NCBI RefSeq assembly: GCF_031381455.1
Contig: NZ_JANMXZ010000048.1
Coordinates: 16,972 to 80,971 of the forward strand
Reading direction: 5' to 3'
Length of the DNA: 64,000 bases
Source: Flavobacterium sp.
Lineage (GTDB): Bacteria; Bacteroidota; Bacteroidia; Flavobacteriales; Flavobacteriaceae
Under the pieces are notes generated by a model that saw nothing but the letters and a program-made list of their open reading frames with translations, was not told the origin of the DNA and made no database searches. How positions within the stretch are numbered: the first letter of the stretch is position 1; each line of letters opens with the position of its first letter. Of this stretch, positions 2,449 through 20,379 are shown piece by piece. The position numbers and the translations under genes are program-made.

Positions 2449-3432
2449 TTAAGGCAAACCGTTTATCGCTGCTATCAGTTGTGCTTCGGTTCCAACAGTA
2501 GTTTCGGCATTAGAGAAAACATAAACATCTCCGGCTGCAATGGTAACTGCTTTGATGGCATATCTGAAGTTTCCATTATCTTCTGTTACAAAAATTACAT
2601 GTGCCACTAATCCTACTGGTATTTGTCCGTAATGTTCAGAGAACTGATTGGTTCCGGCATTGTAAGTATCGAGTTTAGCTAAGGCACTTCCTTCACCATC
2701 GTAGTGTAAATAAATCGCACTGTTTTCAAAATCATAACCAGTTGGAGCTTCAGCAAGTATGGTAGTTTTTGGTCTTGGATCCGAATAGAATCTATCCACA
2801 TTAGTCCAACCAAAATCATTTAAGAAAGCATAGTAAGCAGCACTGGCACCTTGTCCTTCGCCAAATACACCTTGTCCTCCGGCAGGATTTTGATCTCGCT
2901 GATCCCAGTCTAAATTTCCATCTTCATCAATGGTTCCATCCCAAAGTGACATTCCGGTTTCAAGTCCACCAGTTAAATCAGCCGGAATTTTCAATTGCAT
3001 TGGACAAGTAATTTCCAATTGTTGACCGTTTTGAGTAGCGTTTATATAAAATTCACCACCAGAAATAATCAAAGCCATATCGCCGTTTGGTTTTCTACCC
3101 ATAGTAGGTTTATCGGTTACCAACATTGTTCCTTTGTCAAAGACTTCGGCGTATTCAATAGCTACCTGACCTGCTGTAACTGGGTGTCCATTTAAGGTTA
3201 AGCAGTCACCGTTGATGGTTAATTCTACTCCTTTTGCGGATGTAAAAGTTACAGAGCCACCTCCTGCGTTAAGAGTAAACTGTTGTGTAACATTTTCTAG
3301 AGCGGTTTGTTTAAGATTGCTAAACTCTAATGCAGTTGGAATTTGATTTCCATCTGGAGTGTCGGTTGAACAGCTTGCAATGGCTAATGAGGCGAAAAGG
3401 GATAATGCGGTGTTTTTAAAATTTGTGTTCAT
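2449..3432 (-). CDS. lipoprotein, function unknown
   Basis: 327-aa ORF with signal peptide plus lipobox (LAIASCS). I recognised no catalytic motif. Confidence 0.6.
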   Translation of the reverse strand: MNTNFKNTALSLFASLAIASCSTDTPDGNQIPTALEFSNLKQTALENVTQQFTLNAGGGSVTFTSAKGVELTINGDCLTLNGHPVTAGQVAIEYAEVFDKGTMLVTDKPTMGRKPNGDMALIISGGEFYINATQNGQQLEITCPMQLKIPADLTGGLETGMSLWDGTIDEDGNLDWDQRDQNPAGGQGVFGEGQGASAAYYAFLNDFGWTNVDRFYSDPRPKTTILAEAPTGYDFENSAIYLHYDGEGSALAKLDTYNAGTNQFSEHYGQIPVGLVAHVIFVTEDNGNFRYAIKAVTIAAGDVYVFSNAETTVGTEAQLIAAINGLP

Positions 3433-3464
3433 GATTTCTAAGTTTTTATATTTTATATTAATTA

Positions 3465-3908
3465 TTAAAAGAAAAATGCGGTTGGATTACTGATAACAGT
3501 TGTGGTTATTGTTCCATTATTTATAGTAATTGCTTCTACTGACCAAACATAATCACATAAGTAAGGAGGTCTACACGGACCGGTATAGATTCCGGCAACT
3601 GTAGTTTGGGTAATATTATCGACATCTTTTGTGACGATTGGTGGATTGGTTCTCATAGCTTCTGCGCTATTTTGACCTTGCATTAACTGCCATACTTTTA
3701 ATCTATAAATTACGGTTTGTGGTTTTGGCACAAGTGGTGTCCATCTAAAACTAATTGGTTGTGATGCTTCGTCTGCTGAAAATGATTTGCCATTCTCAGG
3801 CGCAACATTTTTTAGTGCTGCAGTTGTAGTTTGTGCTTCAGGAGTACAACTTGCTAAAGCGATTGTTGTTAAAAATAATAATGCGATGTTTTTAAATGTT
3901 GTTTTCAT
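3465..3908 (-). CDS. small lipoprotein, function unknown
   Basis: 147-aa ORF with signal peptide plus lipobox (IALASCT). It is the first gene of a minus-strand cluster divergent from an ECF sigma gene. Confidence 0.55.
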   Translation of the reverse strand: MKTTFKNIALLFLTTIALASCTPEAQTTTAALKNVAPENGKSFSADEASQPISFRWTPLVPKPQTVIYRLKVWQLMQGQNSAEAMRTNPPIVTKDVDNITQTTVAGIYTGPCRPPYLCDYVWSVEAITINNGTITTTVISNPTAFFF

Positions 3909-3951
3909 GATTTCTAGTGTTTTAATTGTTGTTAATTTTTGTTTTATATAG

Positions 3952-3982
3952 TTATATCAATTCGTGTTTTAATTTGTTACCC
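3952..3982. promoter_or_regulatory. 31-bp direct repeat copy A (TTATATCAA-N12-TTTGTTACCC)
   Basis: Same length and same conserved ends as 4042-4072. On the minus strand it reads GGGTAACAAA-N12-TTGATATAA and ends 43 nt upstream of the lipoprotein ATG. Confidence 0.35.
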
Positions 3983-7508: not shown

Positions 7509-8526
7509 ACCCAACATACTTTTAATATACACCGGTGGAACTATTGGTATGATAAAAGATTTTGAAACGGGTGTTTTAAAAGCGTTCAACTTTAAAAAGC
7601 TATTGCAAAAAATTCCGGAACTCAAGCATTTGGATTGCGATATCGAAACGATTTCCTTTAAAAAACCTATTGATTCCTCGAATATAAATCCGGAAAAATG
7701 GATTGAAATTGCAGAAATCATTGAAAGCAACTACGCCAACTTTGATGGATTTGTGGTGCTTCACGGTTCGGATACGATGTCGTATTCTGCATCAGCCTTG
7801 AGTTTTATGCTAGAGAATTTGAATAAACCGGTTGTATTTACAGGTTCTCAATTGCCAATAGGAGATTTAAGAACCGATGCTAAAGAAAATCTGATTACGG
7901 CTATACAAATCGCCTCGTTGCAACAAAAAGGGAAATCCGTAATACATGAAGTCTGTTTGTATTTTGAATACAAATTATATCGCGGAAACCGAACAACAAA
8001 AATAAATGCGGAACATTTTAAAGCGTTTGCTTCGCCCAATTTTCAACAGTTAGCAGAATCAGGAGTTCATTTGAATGTTAATACCAATTTGGTTTTGCCA
8101 AAGCAATCGGCCAAAAAATTAGTAGTCCATAAAAAATTGGACAGTAATGTAGTGATTGTAAAAATGTTCCCGGGCATTAATGAATCTGTTTTATCGGCGA
8201 TTATTGAAATTCCAAATTTAAAAGGAATACTCCTTGAAACCTATGGTTCGGGTAACGCACCAACAGAAGAATGGTTTATTCAAACCTTGAAAAAAGCCAT
8301 AAAAAAAGGGTTGTACATCATCAATGTTACCCAATGTTCTGGTGGAAGTGTTAACATGGGGCAATATGAAACCAGTTCACAATTGAAGAAAATAGGAGTT
8401 ATTTCTGGAAAAGACATTACTACGGAAGCTGCCGTTACAAAACTGATGTACTTGTTGGGGCAAAATGTAGCTCCGGCTGTTTTTAAAACTATTTTTGAGA
8501 CCTCTCTTCGTGGCGAAATGCAGTAA
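7498..8526 (+). CDS. ansA: type I L-asparaginase
   Basis: LLIYTGGTIGM, VVLHGSDTM and GSGN motifs in 342 aa. It overlaps the upstream gene by 11 nt. Confidence 0.85.
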   Translation: MQTKPNILLIYTGGTIGMIKDFETGVLKAFNFKKLLQKIPELKHLDCDIETISFKKPIDSSNINPEKWIEIAEIIESNYANFDGFVVLHGSDTMSYSASALSFMLENLNKPVVFTGSQLPIGDLRTDAKENLITAIQIASLQQKGKSVIHEVCLYFEYKLYRGNRTTKINAEHFKAFASPNFQQLAESGVHLNVNTNLVLPKQSAKKLVVHKKLDSNVVIVKMFPGINESVLSAIIEIPNLKGILLETYGSGNAPTEEWFIQTLKKAIKKGLYIINVTQCSGGSVNMGQYETSSQLKKIGVISGKDITTEAAVTKLMYLLGQNVAPAVFKTIFETSLRGEMQ

Positions 8527-8583
8527 TAAATTATTAAACTAACTTTTTTTACTGAAAAAATTTGTTGTTCTTTGCATCCCAAT

Positions 8584-8668
8584 AGAAAGGTGGCCGAGTG
8601 GCTGAAGGCGCACGCTTGGAAAGCGTGTTTATGGTAACATAACGAGGGTTCGAATCCCTTCCTTTCTG
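8584..8668 (+). tRNA. tRNA-Ser (anticodon GGA), class II with long variable arm
   Basis: Hand-folded. Acceptor agaaagg/cctttct, D arm gcc..ggc, anticodon stem cacgc/gcgtg with loop ttGGAaa, variable arm ttatg-gtaa-cataa, T arm gaggg-ttcgaat-ccctt. CCA is not encoded. Confidence 0.9.
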
Positions 8669-8672
8669 CGAT

Positions 8673-8706
8673 AAAACCAAAGCGGTAGCTTTGGTTTTTT
8701 GTTTTT
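8673..8706 (+). terminator. intrinsic terminator after tRNA-Ser
   Basis: aaaaccaaagc-ggta-gctttggtttt followed by a T run. Confidence 0.7.
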
Positions 8707-8713
8707 CACAGCG

Positions 8714-8843
8714 CGTCGAAAGTTCACTTTCGTAAGCGATGAGGAAAACAAAAAGCCAGCCTTGCAAAGGCTAAGGTTTTATCGCACAAGATTCCCCAAA
8801 CGGGAACAGCGTAGCTAATCCCTTTTTACTATGAAACCTATCT
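8714..8843 (+). repeat. tandem structured repeat, unit 1 (130 nt)
   Basis: The first ~74 nt are identical to unit 2. It contains hairpins cgaaag-ttca-ctttcg and agcct-tgcaa-aggct, then ggga(8802-8805)...tccc(8819-8822) followed by ttttt. Confidence 0.8.
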
Positions 8844-8965
8844 CGTCGAAAGTTCACTTTCGTAAGCGATGAGGAAAACAAAAAGCCAGCCTTGCAAAGG
8901 CTAAGGTTTTATCGCCCAAGATTTCCCGCCAAGGGATCACCGCAGGTAATCCCTTTTACTATGAA
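8844..8965 (+). repeat. tandem structured repeat, unit 2 (122 nt)
   Basis: Same architecture as unit 1. The 3' hairpin ggga(8933-8936)...tccc(8950-8953)+tttt carries ACC/GGT where unit 1 has AGC/GCT. Confidence 0.8.
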
Positions 8966-9064
8966 AGGCGAAAGTTTACTTTCGTAAGCGCTCTGAAAAA
9001 CAAAAAGCTAGCCTTGCAAAGGCTAAGGTTTTATCGGCCAAGATTACTTTACTTGGGCTTTTTT
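8966..9064 (+). repeat. tandem structured repeat, unit 3 (diverged, 99 nt)
   Basis: It shares gcgaaagtttactttcgtaagcg...aaaaagctagccttgcaaaggctaaggttttatcg with units 1 and 2. It ends in a different hairpin, ccaag-attacttta-cttgg, plus tttttt. Confidence 0.7.
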
Positions 9065-9097
9065 AGCTAGACTAAAGTTAAATTTTCTTTCAAAAAG

Positions 9098-9128
9098 TTG
9101 CACAACCAGAATAATCTTGCCATATTTG
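9098..9128 (+). promoter_or_regulatory. candidate Bacteroidota-type promoter for the cys leader (TTG ... cATATTTG)
   Basis: TTG at 9098-9100 and a 7/8 match to TAnnTTTG at 9121-9128, with 20-nt spacing. The uORF ATG lies 16 nt after the box. Confidence 0.35.
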
Positions 9129-9143
9129 TGTAATATAATTCAA

Positions 9144-9218
9144 ATGAAATCAAATTTTTTCCATAACAGTATTTGTTGTTGTTTCTCAAAAAAAGAGGAG
9201 TCATTTGTTATGGACTAA
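9144..9218 (+). CDS. candidate leader peptide MKSNFFHNSICCCFSKKEESFVMD (three consecutive Cys codons)
   Basis: Own translation: ATG 9144, TGT TGT TGT at 9174-9182, TAA 9216-9218. It sits upstream of cysE-cysK and overlaps the 5' arm of an antiterminator. Confidence 0.55.
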   Translation: MKSNFFHNSICCCFSKKEESFVMD

Positions 9219-9253
9219 TGCTATCATATAGTTTTTAAACAATGAGACTCTTC
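9195..9253 (+). promoter_or_regulatory. candidate antiterminator hairpin of the cys leader
   Basis: 9195-9202 pairs with 9246-9253 (8 bp including one G-U), and 9203-9209 pairs with 9238-9243 after an internal loop. It sequesters the 5' arm of the terminator. Confidence 0.5.
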
Positions 9254-9279
9254 AATTTTTTGAAGGGTTTTTTGTTTTT
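9246..9279 (+). terminator. intrinsic terminator in the cysE leader (attenuator)
   Basis: Core stem cttcaa/ttgaag (9250-9255 / 9260-9265) extends to about 10 bp (9246-9255 / 9260-9269) with a tttt loop. The run ttttttgttttt follows, and the cysE ATG lies 30 nt downstream. Confidence 0.65.
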
Positions 9280-9308
9280 AGAGCATTCTCAAAATCAAAT
9301 TTTATACT

Positions 9309-10133
9309 ATGAAATCAGTAAACAAAGCAATATACCAATCCAATTTTCTGGAAAAGAGAATTTTGCTGAATAAAAAGAAAGCTAAATATTGGATCAATGA
9401 ACTAACCTATTGGCTGTTTTGTTCCAACAAAGAATATATTGAATATGATTTTTTCGAACAAAAAGAGGTTGAACTAAAAACGGTTTTAAAAGAATTATTA
9501 GAGCAAGAAGAGTTTTCAAATGAGGAATCAACTCAGTTAACAGAAGATTTCTTCAGTACTATTAGTGAAGTCTACAAAAAGCTTTTGCAGGATTTAAAAA
9601 CAATTTTGGCTTTTGACCCAGCTGCCAAATCAAGGAATGAAGTCTTGATTGCTTATCCAGGTTTTTTTGCCATAACAGTGCATAGGGTTGCGTATGTTTT
9701 ATGGAAGAAAAACGTGTTTATTTTGTCCCGATTCATTGCTGAATATGCCCATAGCAAAACAGGAATCGACATTCATCCAGCAGCAACCATAGGAGAAAGT
9801 TTCTTTATTGATCATGGAACTGGAATAGTAATAGGTGAAACAGCAGTTATCGGTAAAAATGTAAAAATTTACCAAGGCGTAACTTTGGGAGCGTTGACAG
9901 TAAGCAAAGACAAAGCCTCAGAAAAACGTCATCCTACTATAGAAGATGATGTTGTGATTTATGCCAATGCCACTATTTTAGGAGGCAATACCACTATTGG
10001 TAAAGGCGCTGTAATTGGCGGGAATGTTTGGATTACGAATTCTATTCCGGCACAATCTTTAGTTTTTCATAAAAGTGAAATCATTATAAAAAATATTCAA
10101 AACTTCCCTGAAGCAATAAATTTTAGTATTTAA
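9309..10133 (+). CDS. cysE: serine O-acetyltransferase
   Basis: 274 aa with left-handed beta-helix hexapeptide repeats GIDIHPAATIGESFFIDHGTGIVIGETAVIG and VIYANATILGG. Confidence 0.9.
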   Translation: MKSVNKAIYQSNFLEKRILLNKKKAKYWINELTYWLFCSNKEYIEYDFFEQKEVELKTVLKELLEQEEFSNEESTQLTEDFFSTISEVYKKLLQDLKTILAFDPAAKSRNEVLIAYPGFFAITVHRVAYVLWKKNVFILSRFIAEYAHSKTGIDIHPAATIGESFFIDHGTGIVIGETAVIGKNVKIYQGVTLGALTVSKDKASEKRHPTIEDDVVIYANATILGGNTTIGKGAVIGGNVWITNSIPAQSLVFHKSEIIIKNIQNFPEAINFSI

Positions 10134-10148
10134 TTTAATAAAAAACAT

Positions 10149-11057
10149 ATGAAAGCAAACAACATTTTAGGAACCATCGGCAATACGCCCGTTGTAAAAT
10201 TGAGTCGATTATTTGAAAACAGAAATGTTTGGATAAAATTGGAACGAAACAATCCAGGAAACAGTATCAAGGATAGAATTGCCTTAGCTATGGTTGAAGA
10301 CGCTGAAAAGAAAGGGCTTTTAAACCCTGATAGTGTCATTATTGAGCCAACTTCGGGTAACACCGGAATTGGATTAGCATTGGTAGCTGCCGTAAAAGGA
10401 TACAAAGTTATTTTGGTTATGCCCGAATCGATGAGTGTCGAAAGAAGAAAACTAATGGAAATCTACGGAGCTGAATTCGAATTGACACCTCGTGAAAAAG
10501 GAATGAAAGGTGCTATCGAAAGAGCAGCGGAACTCGTTAACGAAACCCCAAACTCTTGGTCACCAAAACAATTTGAAAATCAAGCGAATATTGATATTCA
10601 TAAAACTACTACAGCATTGGAAATATTAGCCGATTTCCCTGAAGGATTGGATTATATCATTACCGGAGTTGGAACTGGCGGGCACATTACAGGTGTTTCC
10701 GAAGTTTTAAAAGAAAAATTTCCAAATCTAAAAGTCATTGCTGTCGAACCTGAATTATCTCCTGTATTAAGCGGTGGTAGTCCATCGCCACACCCAATAC
10801 AGGGAATTGGAGCCGGGTTCATTCCTCAAAATTATCATGCCGCTGCTATCGATGAAATCATTCAAGTGAGTAAAGATGAAGCTTACGAATTTGCCAGAGC
10901 TATTGCCAAAAAAGAAGGAATTTTGGTTGGCGTTTCTTCGGGAGCTTCTTTGGCGGCTGTTGCCAAAAAACTGCAAGAGATTCCAAATGATGCCAGTGTA
11001 TTGACTTTTAATTATGATACAGGAGAAAGATATTTATCCATAGAAGGATTGTTTTAA
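10149..11057 (+). CDS. cysK: cysteine synthase A (O-acetylserine sulfhydrylase)
   Basis: 302 aa with PLP-lysine block NPGNSIKDR, plus TSGNTG and [10 protein letters not shown]. Confidence 0.9.
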
Positions 11058-18108: not shown

Positions 18109-20379
18109 ATGAGAAATTTTAAAAACTCTTTATTTTATATTTTCATTACAGGTGGATTTACCTATTTGATATATAGAATTGTTGAACAAGGAAAACTACT
18201 GGAAGTTGGCAGAAAAATAGTTTCTCCTTCATCAGATGATAGTCAATGGGTTCAGTTTCTTTCTTCATTATTTCACAATTTACAGCATCCATTAGCATTA
18301 TTACTATTCCAAATTATTACGATTGTTGTTGTTGCCAGAATTTTTGGTTGGATTTTTAGAAAAATTGGACAGCCTTCCGTTATTGGAGAAATCATTGCCG
18401 GTATTGTTCTTGGGCCATCACTTTTTGGACAGTATTTCCCGGATATGAAAGAAGCACTTTTCCCAGTGGCTTCACTTGGAAATCTTCAAATGTTGAGTCA
18501 GATTGGTTTGATACTTTTCATGTTTGTGATAGGCATGGAATTAGATTTGAAAGTCTTAAAAAACAAAGCCAACGAAGCAGTTGTAATCAGTCATGCGAGC
18601 ATTATAATTCCGTTTGCTTTGGGTATTGGATTATCCTATTATATCTATCATCAATTTGCACCGCCTGGTATAGAGTTTTTATCGTTTAGTTTGTTTATGG
18701 GAATTGCCATGAGCATCACGGCATTTCCGGTTTTGGCTCGAATTGTTCAAGAACGAGGCATTCATAAAACCCGATTAGGAACTATTGTTATCACGTGTGC
18801 TGCGGCCGATGATATTACTGCTTGGTGTATATTGGCAGCAGTTATTGCCATCGTAAAAGCAGGAAGTTTTGTGAGTGCGTTGTATGTTATTGGGTTAGCG
18901 GTTGCTTATGTTCTAATGATGCTGTTTGTAGTTAAACCATTCCTAAAACGAATTGGGGATTTATATGCCAAAAAAGATAATATTAAAAAATCGGTTGTAG
19001 CTATATTTTTCCTGACACTTATTGTATCTTCTTATTTGACTGAAATCATTGGTATTCATGCATTGTTTGGTGCTTTTATGACAGGTGTTATTATGCCAGA
19101 TATATCGAAATTCAGAAATGTTTTTATTGAAAAAGTAGAAGATGTTGCCCTGATTTTATTATTGCCATTGTTCTTTGTTTTCACTGGATTGCGAACAGAA
19201 ATAGGTTTAATAAACGAACCTTATTTGTGGAAAATTACTGGATTTATCATTTTAGTTGCTGTTGCCGGAAAATTCTTTGGAAGTGCTTTAGCGGCAAAAT
19301 TTGTTGGACAAAGTTGGCGCGATAGTTTAACTATTGGTGCTTTGATGAACACGCGTGGTTTGATGGAATTGGTTGTGTTAAACATTGGTTACGAATTGGG
19401 TGTGCTTTCGCCAAAAGTCTTTACGATGATGGTAATTATGGCGTTGGTTACTACTTTTATGACTGGTCCGGCGTTGGATATTATTAATTTTATTTTTAAA
19501 ACCAAAGATGCCATTATTCCTTCAGAGGTTAAAAAGAGTTCCGATTATAATATTCTTATTTCTTTTGGGAACAATCAGAAAGGAAAATCACTACTCCGTT
19601 TAGCAAACAGTCTTGTTAAAAAGCAACCCGATTCTGCAAATGTGACGGCTATGCATTTAACGGCAAGTGATGAAATGCACGCGTATAATTTGCAAGAATA
19701 TGAAACCCACACTTTTGAGCCTATTGTGAAAGAATCTCGAAAACTAGAACAACATATCACCACTATTTTCAAAGCAACCAACGATATTGAAACTGATATT
19801 GCTAACATTGCACATGAAGGGAAATATGATTTGGTATTGGTTGGTTTGGGGAAATCTATTTTTGAAGGAACCTTACTAGGGAAAGTGCTAGGATTTACCA
19901 CAAGAATTATCAATCCGGATAGATTATTGGATAAATTTAAAGGGAAAGAAGGATTGTTTGAAAATTCACCTTTTGATGACAGAACACGTTTGATAATTTC
20001 CAAAACCAAACCACCACTTGGCGTTTTGATTGATAAAGATCTGCATCAAATTGATAAAGTATTCGTTGGTATTTATAGCGTTGGCGATGTTTTTCTGATT
20101 GATTACGCCCAAAAATTAATATTCAATAATGATTCTCATGTTACGATTTTGGACAGTAACGGACATACTAAAAATAACTTTATTGTTGAAAATGCTTTAG
20201 CTGCTTTAGAACAAAATCATCCGGATAACATCGAAGTGTTACATCCTGATCAACTCAACAAACCATTTTTGGCTCAGCAAGATTTAATCGTTTTTAGTTT
20301 AGAAACTTGGAAAAAATTGGTTGATGACGAGGTTTCTTGGCTTACGGACATTCCTTCGGTTTTGATAATTAAGCCGTAA
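18109..20379 (+). CDS. cation:proton antiporter (CPA2/Kef-type) with long C-terminal soluble domain
   Basis: 756 aa with about 12 TM segments, GEIIAGIVLGPS and MNTRGLMELVVLNIG blocks, and a C-terminal ~300-aa cytoplasmic extension. Confidence 0.8.
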   Translation: MRNFKNSLFYIFITGGFTYLIYRIVEQGKLLEVGRKIVSPSSDDSQWVQFLSSLFHNLQHPLALLLFQIITIVVVARIFGWIFRKIGQPSVIGEIIAGIVLGPSLFGQYFPDMKEALFPVASLGNLQMLSQIGLILFMFVIGMELDLKVLKNKANEAVVISHASIIIPFALGIGLSYYIYHQFAPPGIEFLSFSLFMGIAMSITAFPVLARIVQERGIHKTRLGTIVITCAAADDITAWCILAAVIAIVKAGSFVSALYVIGLAVAYVLMMLFVVKPFLKRIGDLYAKKDNIKKSVVAIFFLTLIVSSYLTEIIGIHALFGAFMTGVIMPDISKFRNVFIEKVEDVALILLLPLFFVFTGLRTEIGLINEPYLWKITGFIILVAVAGKFFGSALAAKFVGQSWRDSLTIGALMNTRGLMELVVLNIGYELGVLSPKVFTMMVIMALVTTFMTGPALDIINFIFKTKDAIIPSEVKKSSDYNILISFGNNQKGKSLLRLANSLVKKQPDSANVTAMHLTASDEMHAYNLQEYETHTFEPIVKESRKLEQHITTIFKATNDIETDIANIAHEGKYDLVLVGLGKSIFEGTLLGKVLGFTTRIINPDRLLDKFKGKEGLFENSPFDDRTRLIISKTKPPLGVLIDKDLHQIDKVFVGIYSVGDVFLIDYAQKLIFNNDSHVTILDSNGHTKNNFIVENALAALEQNHPDNIEVLHPDQLNKPFLAQQDLIVFSLETWKKLVDDEVSWLTDIPSVLIIKP

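Follow-up and report, generated by a model that had tools for sequence, protein, structure and literature searches.

A predicted cysteine-sensing leader-peptide attenuator upstream of cysE-cysK in Flavobacterium

The DNA analysed here (the window) is a stretch of 64,000 nucleotides (nt) from Flavobacterium sp. (contig NZ_JANMXZ010000048.1), and this report deals with a short leader in front of its cysteine biosynthesis genes cysE and cysK. The CysE protein matches the NCBIfam model of EpsC-type serine O-acetyltransferases (NF041874, 162.5 bits, cut-off 150) and is 100% identical to the NCBI Flavobacterium sp. protein P0001 found by protein search, and CysK matches TIGR01139 (410 bits, cut-off 351). 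The two genes are presumably co-transcribed, and the pair is kept in every relative that was looked up. The leader consists of a promoter-like sequence, a 24-codon upstream open reading frame (uORF) with three consecutive TGT codons, and an intrinsic terminator whose T run reaches 9279 and leaves 30 nt to the start codon of cysE at 9309 (Table 1). Computation supports the view, which we hold to be probably correct, that these parts constitute a ribosome-mediated leader-peptide transcription attenuator, which would sense charged tRNA-Cys and control cysE-cysK. An earlier sequence-only reading of the window had proposed such an element. Its positions for the uORF, the TGT triplet, segment 2 (see below), the terminator, the promoter boxes and the cysE ATG all match the sequence and the list of open reading frames (ORFs), and its naming of cysE and cysK is borne out by the NCBIfam matches above cut-off.

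The sigma-A promoter consensus of Bacteroidota is TTTG / TAnnTTTG, and the TTG and cATATTTG elements in front of the uORF (9098-9100 and 9121-9128) would make up a promoter of this type. Transcription is predicted to start a few nucleotides past the -7 box, so that about 8-12 nt of 5' untranslated region (UTR) would precede the uORF ATG. The 15 nt between the end of the -7 box and this ATG suggest that the mRNA is not leaderless but has a short 5' UTR. A lone small ORF (sORF) with three adjacent Cys codons is not rare by itself (background 0.011 per 300 nt). Five of the 921 ATG-initiated sORFs on both strands of the window are Cys-rich, and the leader is the only intergenic one among them; the other four (at 18246, 29483, 47705 and 58497), which lie inside long ORFs in other frames, were dismissed.

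Table 1. Features of the leader region in the window, leader peptides of the homologous Flavobacterium loci (with CysE identity to the window protein), and terminator-type leaders at other loci.
Feature or locus	Position	Strand	Basis or remark
-33 element TTG	9098..9100	+	read from sequence; promoter role proposed from the Bacteroidota consensus
-7 element cATATTTG (consensus TAnnTTTG)	9121..9128	+	read from sequence
Leader ORF, 24 codons, MKSNFFHNSICCCFSKKEESFVMD	9144..9218	+	ATG 9144, stop TAA 9216-9218
Regulatory codons TGT TGT TGT (Cys 11-13)	9174..9182	+	read from sequence
Segment 1, anti-antiterminator 5' half	9160..9187	+	minimum free energy (MFE), centroid and free-leader folds
Segment 2, last 7 uORF codons; partner is segment 1 or segment 3	9195..9214	+	folds
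Segment 3, overlapping terminator 5' arm	9238..9253	+	folds
Intrinsic terminator (segments 3:4) with T run	9244..9279	+	terminator scan
cysE, EpsC-type serine O-acetyltransferase, first regulated gene (predicted)	9309..10133	+	NCBIfam
cysK, cysteine synthase A, 15 nt after cysE	10149..11057	+	NCBIfam
L001			CysE 90%; leader peptide MKSNFFHNSICCCFSKNGECFVMD
L161			CysE 84%; leader peptide MTSNFFHTSTCCCFSKTEEYFVMD
L002			CysE 91%; leader peptide MKSNFFHNCICCFSKKEE
L081			CysE 89%; leader peptide MNSNFFHNCICCFFQKEEDIVMD
L003			CysE 78%; leader peptide MQLVYITFCYCFPQLLRSDLL
L082			CysE 72%; leader peptide MSNIKIIIISCCTCSVVESFVL
L168			CysE 68%; leader peptide MSFTKSIFIQCCTCSKLESYRLL
L165			CysE 70%; leader peptide MKTIKSIALHCCRNSF
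L020	160-240		terminator-type Cys-uORF leader upstream of cysE
L116	1360-1434		terminator-type Cys-uORF leader upstream of cysE
L090	1136-1213		terminator-type Cys-uORF leader upstream of cysE
L092	1278-1349		terminator-type Cys-uORF leader upstream of cysE
L044	2808-2891		terminator-type Cys-uORF leader upstream of cysE
L036	2675-2713		terminator-type Cys-uORF leader upstream of cysE

The leader RNA is predicted to form three alternative hairpins from four segments. The terminator (segments 3 and 4) was found by a terminator scan as a stem of 12 pairs (9244-9255 with 9260-9271) with a loop at 9256-9259, followed by TTGTTTTTAG, a run of 12 T with one G. The stem can be extended by pairing of AAACAA with TTGTTT (9237-9277), and the terminator alone folds with -16.3 to -16.4 kcal/mol. 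Segment 1 pairs with segment 2 through two helices, one between 9160-9169 and 9205-9214, the other between 9180-9187, which includes the third Cys codon, and 9195-9203. The MFE and centroid folds of 9130-9290 show the terminator together with this 1:2 hairpin (z = -2.8), and the free leader folds in the same way, as 1:2 plus 3:4; the 5' part of the leader alone reaches -13.4 kcal/mol. Because segment 1 pairs with segment 2, the latter would be sequestered except when the Cys codons are occupied by a ribosome.

The antiterminator pairs segment 2 with segment 3. It appears in the fold of the nascent RNA, that is, of the RNA outside a stalled ribosome before the 3' arm of the terminator has been made, and consists of eight pairs (9195-9202 with 9246-9253) and five more (9205-9209 with 9238-9242), with a small hairpin between the two helices. 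Its energy of -17.7 kcal/mol (z about -4) was reached by none of 300 shuffled sequences. When 9183-9279 is folded alone, the antiterminator is the MFE structure at -22.7 versus -16.4 for the terminator. Folding with a ribosome mask, which covers A-15 to A+12 around the A-site codon, gives the 2:3 antiterminator as the full-leader MFE (-21.3) with the ribosome on the first Cys codon, and the terminator with the ribosome on the stop codon. Adding segment 1 results in a full three-hairpin attenuator of the trp type (1:2, 2:3 and 3:4). The sequence-only reading had missed segment 1 (9160-9187), while its segment 2 inside the uORF, its antiterminator and its terminator are upheld by the folds, by eight relatives and by covariation (see below). 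The 2:3 pairing that it had described returns as the 8 + 5 predicted pairs of the nascent-RNA fold, and the comparison of energies that it had called for gives -17.7 kcal/mol for the antiterminator (nascent RNA) versus -16.3 for the terminator.

In the mechanism that we propose, RNA polymerase would start transcription a few nucleotides past the -7 box at 9121-9128, and a ribosome would begin to translate the leader ORF of 24 codons at 9144. With ample Cys-tRNA(Cys), this ribosome would pass the three TGT codons and sit on segment 2 while segments 3 and 4 are being made; with segment 2 occupied, the 3:4 terminator (9244-9271 and the U run) would form and transcription would stop some 30 nt short of cysE. 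A shortage of Cys-tRNA(Cys) would make the ribosome stall with a Cys codon in its A site. The footprint of the stalled ribosome, about 9159-9194, would cover segment 1 and end right before segment 2, and the free segment 2 would capture segment 3 as it emerges, sequestering the 5' arm of the terminator and letting the polymerase read into cysE-cysK. If the leader is not translated at all, segments 1 and 2 would pair and the terminator would form, making "off" the default state. The footprint dimensions are those of bacterial ribosome profiling. We infer the transcription start, the translation of the uORF, the coupling of transcription and translation, the actual termination and the response to cysteine.

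Relatives of the leader were gathered by a CysE scan of one genome per species and of Joint Genome Institute (JGI) metagenomes, by protein search and by ten contig look-ups. The metagenome scan yielded two usable close relatives (L081 and L082), while L083 came without upstream DNA. The resulting family consists of nine sequences, the window and eight homologous Flavobacterium loci from genomes or metagenomes, in which CysE is 68-91% identical. The promoter boxes are found in all nine members as TTG or TTTG at an equal distance 5' of nAnnTTTG, and within the -7 motif A33 and T36-G39 are invariant in the whole-leader alignment (A1). Equally, the ATG and the reading frame of the uORF are kept in 9/9 members, with a length of 16-24 codons, and every member has two to four Cys codons at codons 9-14, with TGT and TGC interchanging. 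The rest of the leader peptide diverges, as is seen in MQLVYITFCYCFPQLLRSDLL, MSFTKSIFIQCCTCSKLESYRLL and MKTIKSIALHCCRNSF. In L002 and L081, one TGT is lost in frame and an AGT at codon 9 has become TGT, which leaves three Cys codons.

The RNA architecture is preserved along with the uORF. A hairpin followed by a U run is present in all eight homologs, and in the nascent folds of all nine members the 3' end of the uORF is the partner of the terminator 5' arm (dG -9.3 to -17.7, z about -1.4 to -4.2). L002 and L165 have an earlier stop codon, and their antiterminator partner lies at or just past it. Eight of the nine members (the window, L001, L002, L081, L003, L161, L168 and L165) sequester segment 2, when folded free, in an upstream structure over the Cys codons. 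The distance from the last Cys codon to the start of segment 2, which is 13 nt in the window (segment 2 begins at 9195), stays at 11-14 nt across the family, as would be predicted if the footprint of the stalled ribosome served as a ruler.

Covariation was examined in trimmed alignments (A2 and A3) and per-sequence folds, since the whole-leader MAFFT alignment A1 mis-registers the distant members. The antiterminator core helix is 86% paired over the nine sequences (A3) versus 36-61% when the partners are slid by one to three columns. In the main terminator helix, 95.5% of the cells are paired over the nine sequences, and three pairs have changed on both sides. The most informative position is column 77 (window 9252), a segment 3 base for which L082, L168 and L165 have C instead of T. 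Its partner in segment 2 shifts from A to G alongside (AU in five sequences, GC in three, GU in one), and so does its partner in segment 4 (UA in four, CG in three, UG in two). By these double changes, one base of segment 3 keeps both of its alternative partners. The covariation is supportive of the 2:3 / 3:4 switch and is not a proof of it. The conservation that the sequence-only reading had set as a check, namely that of the uORF, its Cys codons, the competing hairpins and the T run, is found in the eight Flavobacterium loci, and the trp/his/leu attenuation logic that it had applied to cysE-cysK gains support from folding, from these relatives and from covariation.

Several observations weigh against an attenuator of this kind. 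With the ribosome on the last Cys codon and the full leader at equilibrium, the terminator is preferred or tied (-21.4 versus -21.3). The alternative states are near in energy at equilibrium, so the switch must be kinetic and depend on co-transcriptional folding. Kinetic co-transcriptional control is an assumption of the classical attenuation model too, and the switch was judged here on the nascent-RNA folds, which assume it, since folding at equilibrium with a masked ribosome sometimes fails to favour the antiterminator. Placed at the stop codon (9216-9218), a waiting ribosome would shield segment 2 only in its 3' part; repression would have to come mainly from the transit of ribosomes over segment 2 and from the re-formed 1:2 hairpin. 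The structure of segment 1 is weak or absent in L082. The covariation sample is nine sequences, five of them close relatives, the key double change of L082, L168 and L165 may be one ancestral event, and the covariation of the antiterminator only moderately exceeds the shuffle controls. Finally, the leader is absent in L162, L167 and L169 (CysE 69-77% identical), cysE lies about 12 nt behind cysN in L163, L164, L166, L170 and L004, and no Cys uORF was found in the 3 kb upstream in L004. The element must be dispensable, as some close relatives do without it.

At the loci without the leader (CysE 57-77%), either a long AT-rich intergenic region is found or cysE forms part of a sulfate-assimilation operon behind cysN. 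The leader is apparently gained and lost along with operon rearrangement.

Cys-rich uORFs are found upstream of cysE far beyond this family. A search for ATG-initiated sORFs with at least three Cys in five residues, carried out in the 300 nt upstream of cysE at about 148 loci, found them on the sense strand at 19 loci, mostly from Bacteroidota and Ignavibacteriota. The antisense strand of these very regions has one, and the remainder of the loci has 0.011 per 300 nt, an enrichment with a Poisson P of about 2e-14 and a Fisher P of about 1e-5 over loci that are not all phylogenetically independent. At least four further families, unrelated in sequence, have the layout of uORF, antiterminator and terminator: L020/L116 (peptide ..CCCCKIFLQKG..), L090/L092 (peptide ..CCCCAISAQLKG..), L044 and L036. 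All of them combine the uORF with a strong terminator, and in each case the 3' portion of the uORF can base-pair with the terminator's 5' arm. Their sources are Bacteroidales, Chitinophagaceae and metagenome contigs without assignment. The pattern suggests that the same switch evolved convergently.

A different arrangement is found at L012, L026, L027, L029, L030, L034 (identical to L097), L043 and L067, from Melioribacter, Marinifilaceae and other Bacteroidota. Here, the uORF ends in a C-terminal run of 4-13 Cys codons (endings ..SLVCCCCCC and ..CCSTVCCCCCKQVCCCCCC, each directly followed by the stop codon) and sits within 50-260 nt upstream of cysE. No obvious intrinsic terminator was found after the uORF at any of these eight loci. 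Like the mycobacterial polycysteine sORFs (see below), they may represent a terminator-less class of Cys attenuators, either Rho-dependent or translational. Taken together, the Cys-leader phenomenon appears to be widespread and recurrent in Bacteroidota. There is, in our estimate, an even chance that Cys leaders are the main cysteine-sensing control of cysE in Bacteroidota and their neighbours in the Fibrobacteres-Chlorobi-Bacteroidetes (FCB) group (Ignavibacteriota/Melioribacter, Marinifilaceae, Chitinophagaceae, Bacteroidales and Flavobacterium). On this broader proposal, the leaders would have several independent origins and two mechanistic forms, one with terminator and antiterminator and one with a terminator-less C-terminal polyCys run that acts through Rho or translation.

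Two further sORFs were seen in the course of this search. In a Syntrophobacterales metagenome-assembled genome (Desulfobacterota; L063, 2444-2581), a uORF that begins MVMCEDDMCCCCCLVH lies upstream of cysE in a GC-rich structured leader, so the FCB group is not alone in having Cys uORFs ahead of cysE. In L078, the sORF MKTKNINIIKNSNVTCCCLSSFKLWWKGTI (3864-3956) lies just 3' of cysE (match 3001-3768), with a weak terminator-like hairpin, and may be a second Cys leader ahead of the next gene.

Upstream of the Flavobacterium leader, the window contains an asparaginase-like ORF and then a tRNA-Ser(GGA) gene (8584-8669) with an 11-pair terminator hairpin immediately 3' of it (8673-8698). Since the tRNA has a terminator of its own, that of the leader is not needed to end the tRNA transcript. 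The region between the tRNA and the leader promoter (8700-9049) is occupied by three tandem units of about 122-130 nt, which are 85-98% identical over an 84-nt core and have no Rfam match. Each unit holds a hairpin, AGCCTTGCAAAGGCT, with an A-rich run on one side and a T-rich run on the other. In minus-strand orientation, the units look like intrinsic terminators and resemble an inverted copy of the tRNA-Ser trailer and terminator (8668-8705). Their 27-nt core occurs within the window only at 8700-9049, and once in L002. Another direct repeat (D2, 8533-8573 versus 9144-9184, 71% match) was treated as chance.

Parts of these observations could have other causes. The terminator might be conditional or leaky and be run by a protein, a small RNA or a small-molecule-binding RNA, the small ORF being untranslated or irrelevant. 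The 1:2, 2:3 and 3:4 structures could in principle serve a riboswitch or a protein, and the thermodynamic preference between the states is small, but the leader is short, has no conserved unpaired pocket and matches no Rfam family even at E-values up to 10. In the nine members, moreover, ATG, frame and Cys codons persist while the other codons drift and TGT interchanges with TGC, and the distance between Cys codons and segment 2 is fixed at the edge of a ribosome footprint. The unrelated leaders upstream of cysE have only the Cys run in common. A switch that works without the ribosome is accordingly unlikely in our judgement. Very unlikely is a uORF that acts on the translation of cysE, or via Rho, with the hairpin not being the regulated step. 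Mycobacterial polycysteine sORFs do work translationally (bioRxiv 10.1101/834739), and several of the C-terminal polyCys uORFs from Bacteroidota and Ignavibacteriota come without a visible intrinsic terminator. In the leader described here, however, a canonical terminator, 95% conserved in its pairs, stands between uORF and cysE, the Cys codons pair with segment 2 and not with the cysE start region, and the 30 nt from the T run to the cysE ATG take part in no conserved helix in the window folds or in alignment A1.

The terminator might also merely end or insulate the upstream unit of tRNA-Ser and repeats, with the Cys sORF a coincidence of T/G-rich sequence. Three consecutive TG(T/C) codons do occur 17 times on both strands of the window, and terminator-like hairpins are common in the region. 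This explanation is nevertheless hard to reconcile with the separate terminator of the tRNA, with a conserved promoter between the repeats and the uORF, with the strand-specific enrichment of Cys sORFs upstream of cysE, and with homologs that keep uORF and switch behind wholly different upstream genes (asparaginase, DUF3857 and others); we give it hardly any credence. Just as little can be given to a peptide that is itself the functional product, such as a metal- or redox-active small protein of 24 residues co-expressed with cysE-cysK. Cys-rich small proteins exist, and the close relatives keep the pattern MxSNFFH..C..F..EE..VMD. Yet these conserved residues coincide with the RNA helices, conservation in the distant members is limited to the Cys cluster and to those residues for which segment 2 codes, and the peptide varies from 16 to 24 residues with a stop codon that moves (L002 and L165). 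Attenuation by a ribosome at the Cys codons remains the explanation that we prefer.

The control of cysteine and sulfur assimilation in Bacteroidota is poorly known, and the attenuator would offer a concrete cis-regulatory mechanism for cysE-cysK in Flavobacterium. None of the well-known regulators of other phyla (CysB, CymR, T-box, S-box) was detected here as an RNA element. If the interpretation is right, the element, along with the recurrent polyCys uORFs ahead of cysE, extends leader-peptide attenuation to cysteine, for which transcriptional attenuation has so far only been predicted (Rhodobacterales cysS), and to a phylum in which ribosome-RNA polymerase coupling and initiation without a Shine-Dalgarno sequence lend such devices mechanistic interest. 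The element would also be a compact and portable cysteine-responsive switch for genetic tools in Bacteroidota.

The leader does not belong to a known RNA family. A scan of 8000-10000 against Rfam, with E-values up to 10, returned the tRNA-Ser and sub-threshold noise, and no leader, riboswitch or T-box; the best leader match is Phe_leader (E 3.5, 19.7 bits versus a cut-off of 55). The T-box, the SAM (S-box) riboswitch and the other Rfam cis-regulatory RNAs of cys and met genes were likewise without a match in this region. The design, on the other hand, is that of trpL, hisL, leuL, thrL, pheL and ilvL of E. coli and Salmonella: a leader ORF with a run of codons for the end product, a segment 1 that holds these codons, mutually exclusive 1:2, 2:3 and 3:4 hairpins and, just ahead of the first biosynthetic gene, a terminator that ends in a U run. 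Unlike these leaders, with which it has no sequence or Rfam-model similarity, the element described here would sense cysteine, belongs to a cysE-cysK operon of Flavobacterium with a Bacteroidota-type promoter and has no Shine-Dalgarno sequence. A further difference is that its segment 2 lies inside the uORF, 5' of the stop codon, whereas in the classical leaders it follows the stop. The element reveals no new principle: the principle is textbook, and what is new, to the extent of our search, is its use for this amino acid, in this operon and in this phylum.

The Bacteroid-trp motif, which Weinberg is said to have described in 2010, is a leader element in the Bacteroidota phylum. Closer by its host, leader-peptide attenuation was proposed from transcriptome data for ilvE and other operons of Flavobacterium psychrophilum (Guerin et al. 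2021, PMC9723704). There, too, the proposal came from structured 5' regions whose short ORFs are enriched in the cognate amino acid, and the genus is the same. Unlike the element described here, they and Bacteroid-trp belong to ilvE, branched-chain, Trp and other operons, and the text and supplements of that study contain no Cys leader and no cysE or cysK leader. A full-text search likewise found no published Cys leader upstream of cysE in Bacteroidota, with the proviso that it did not cover the attenuator survey of Lopatovskaya et al. 2010, which may mention one.

Cys leaders of another kind are known from Actinobacteria, in which terminator-less Cys leader peptides were predicted upstream of cys operons (Seliverstov et al. 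2005, PMC1262725). Mycobacterial polycysteine sORFs were shown to be translational attenuators by Canestrari et al. 2020 (bioRxiv 10.1101/834739), who stated that uORF-mediated attenuation for cysteine had not previously been described. What they share with the Flavobacterium element is a stretch of consecutive Cys codons upstream of cysteine biosynthesis genes (cysK1-cysE in M. tuberculosis) and, by prediction for the latter, the sensing of Cys through ribosome speed. The mycobacterial sORFs are leaderless, carry their Cys tract at the C-terminus, have no intrinsic terminator and mask the Shine-Dalgarno sequence of the next gene, whereas the element described here has its Cys codons in the middle of the ORF, a canonical terminator/antiterminator and no pairing of the Cys tract with the downstream start region. 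It is the C-terminal polyCys uORFs of Bacteroidota that resemble the mycobacterial arrangement.

A further parallel is uORFC-8-2, a motif predicted by computation in front of cysS in Rhodobacterales, which combines a Cys-Cys uORF and an intrinsic terminator (Brewer et al. 2021, PMC8632094). The sequence-only reading, which was aware of no Cys leader described in Bacteroidota, agrees in this with what was found, and its account of the literature was incomplete in that it omitted this uORF. Like the element described here, uORFC-8-2 has adjacent Cys codons (UGC/UGU) that lie within the first stem, ends in a U run and is predicted to attenuate by way of the ribosome. It differs in belonging to a Cys-tRNA synthetase gene of Alphaproteobacteria and in having two Cys codons at positions 14-15, and there is no detectable homology between the two. 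The element described here is set apart from it by the downstream gene, cysE, and by its Flavobacterium host.

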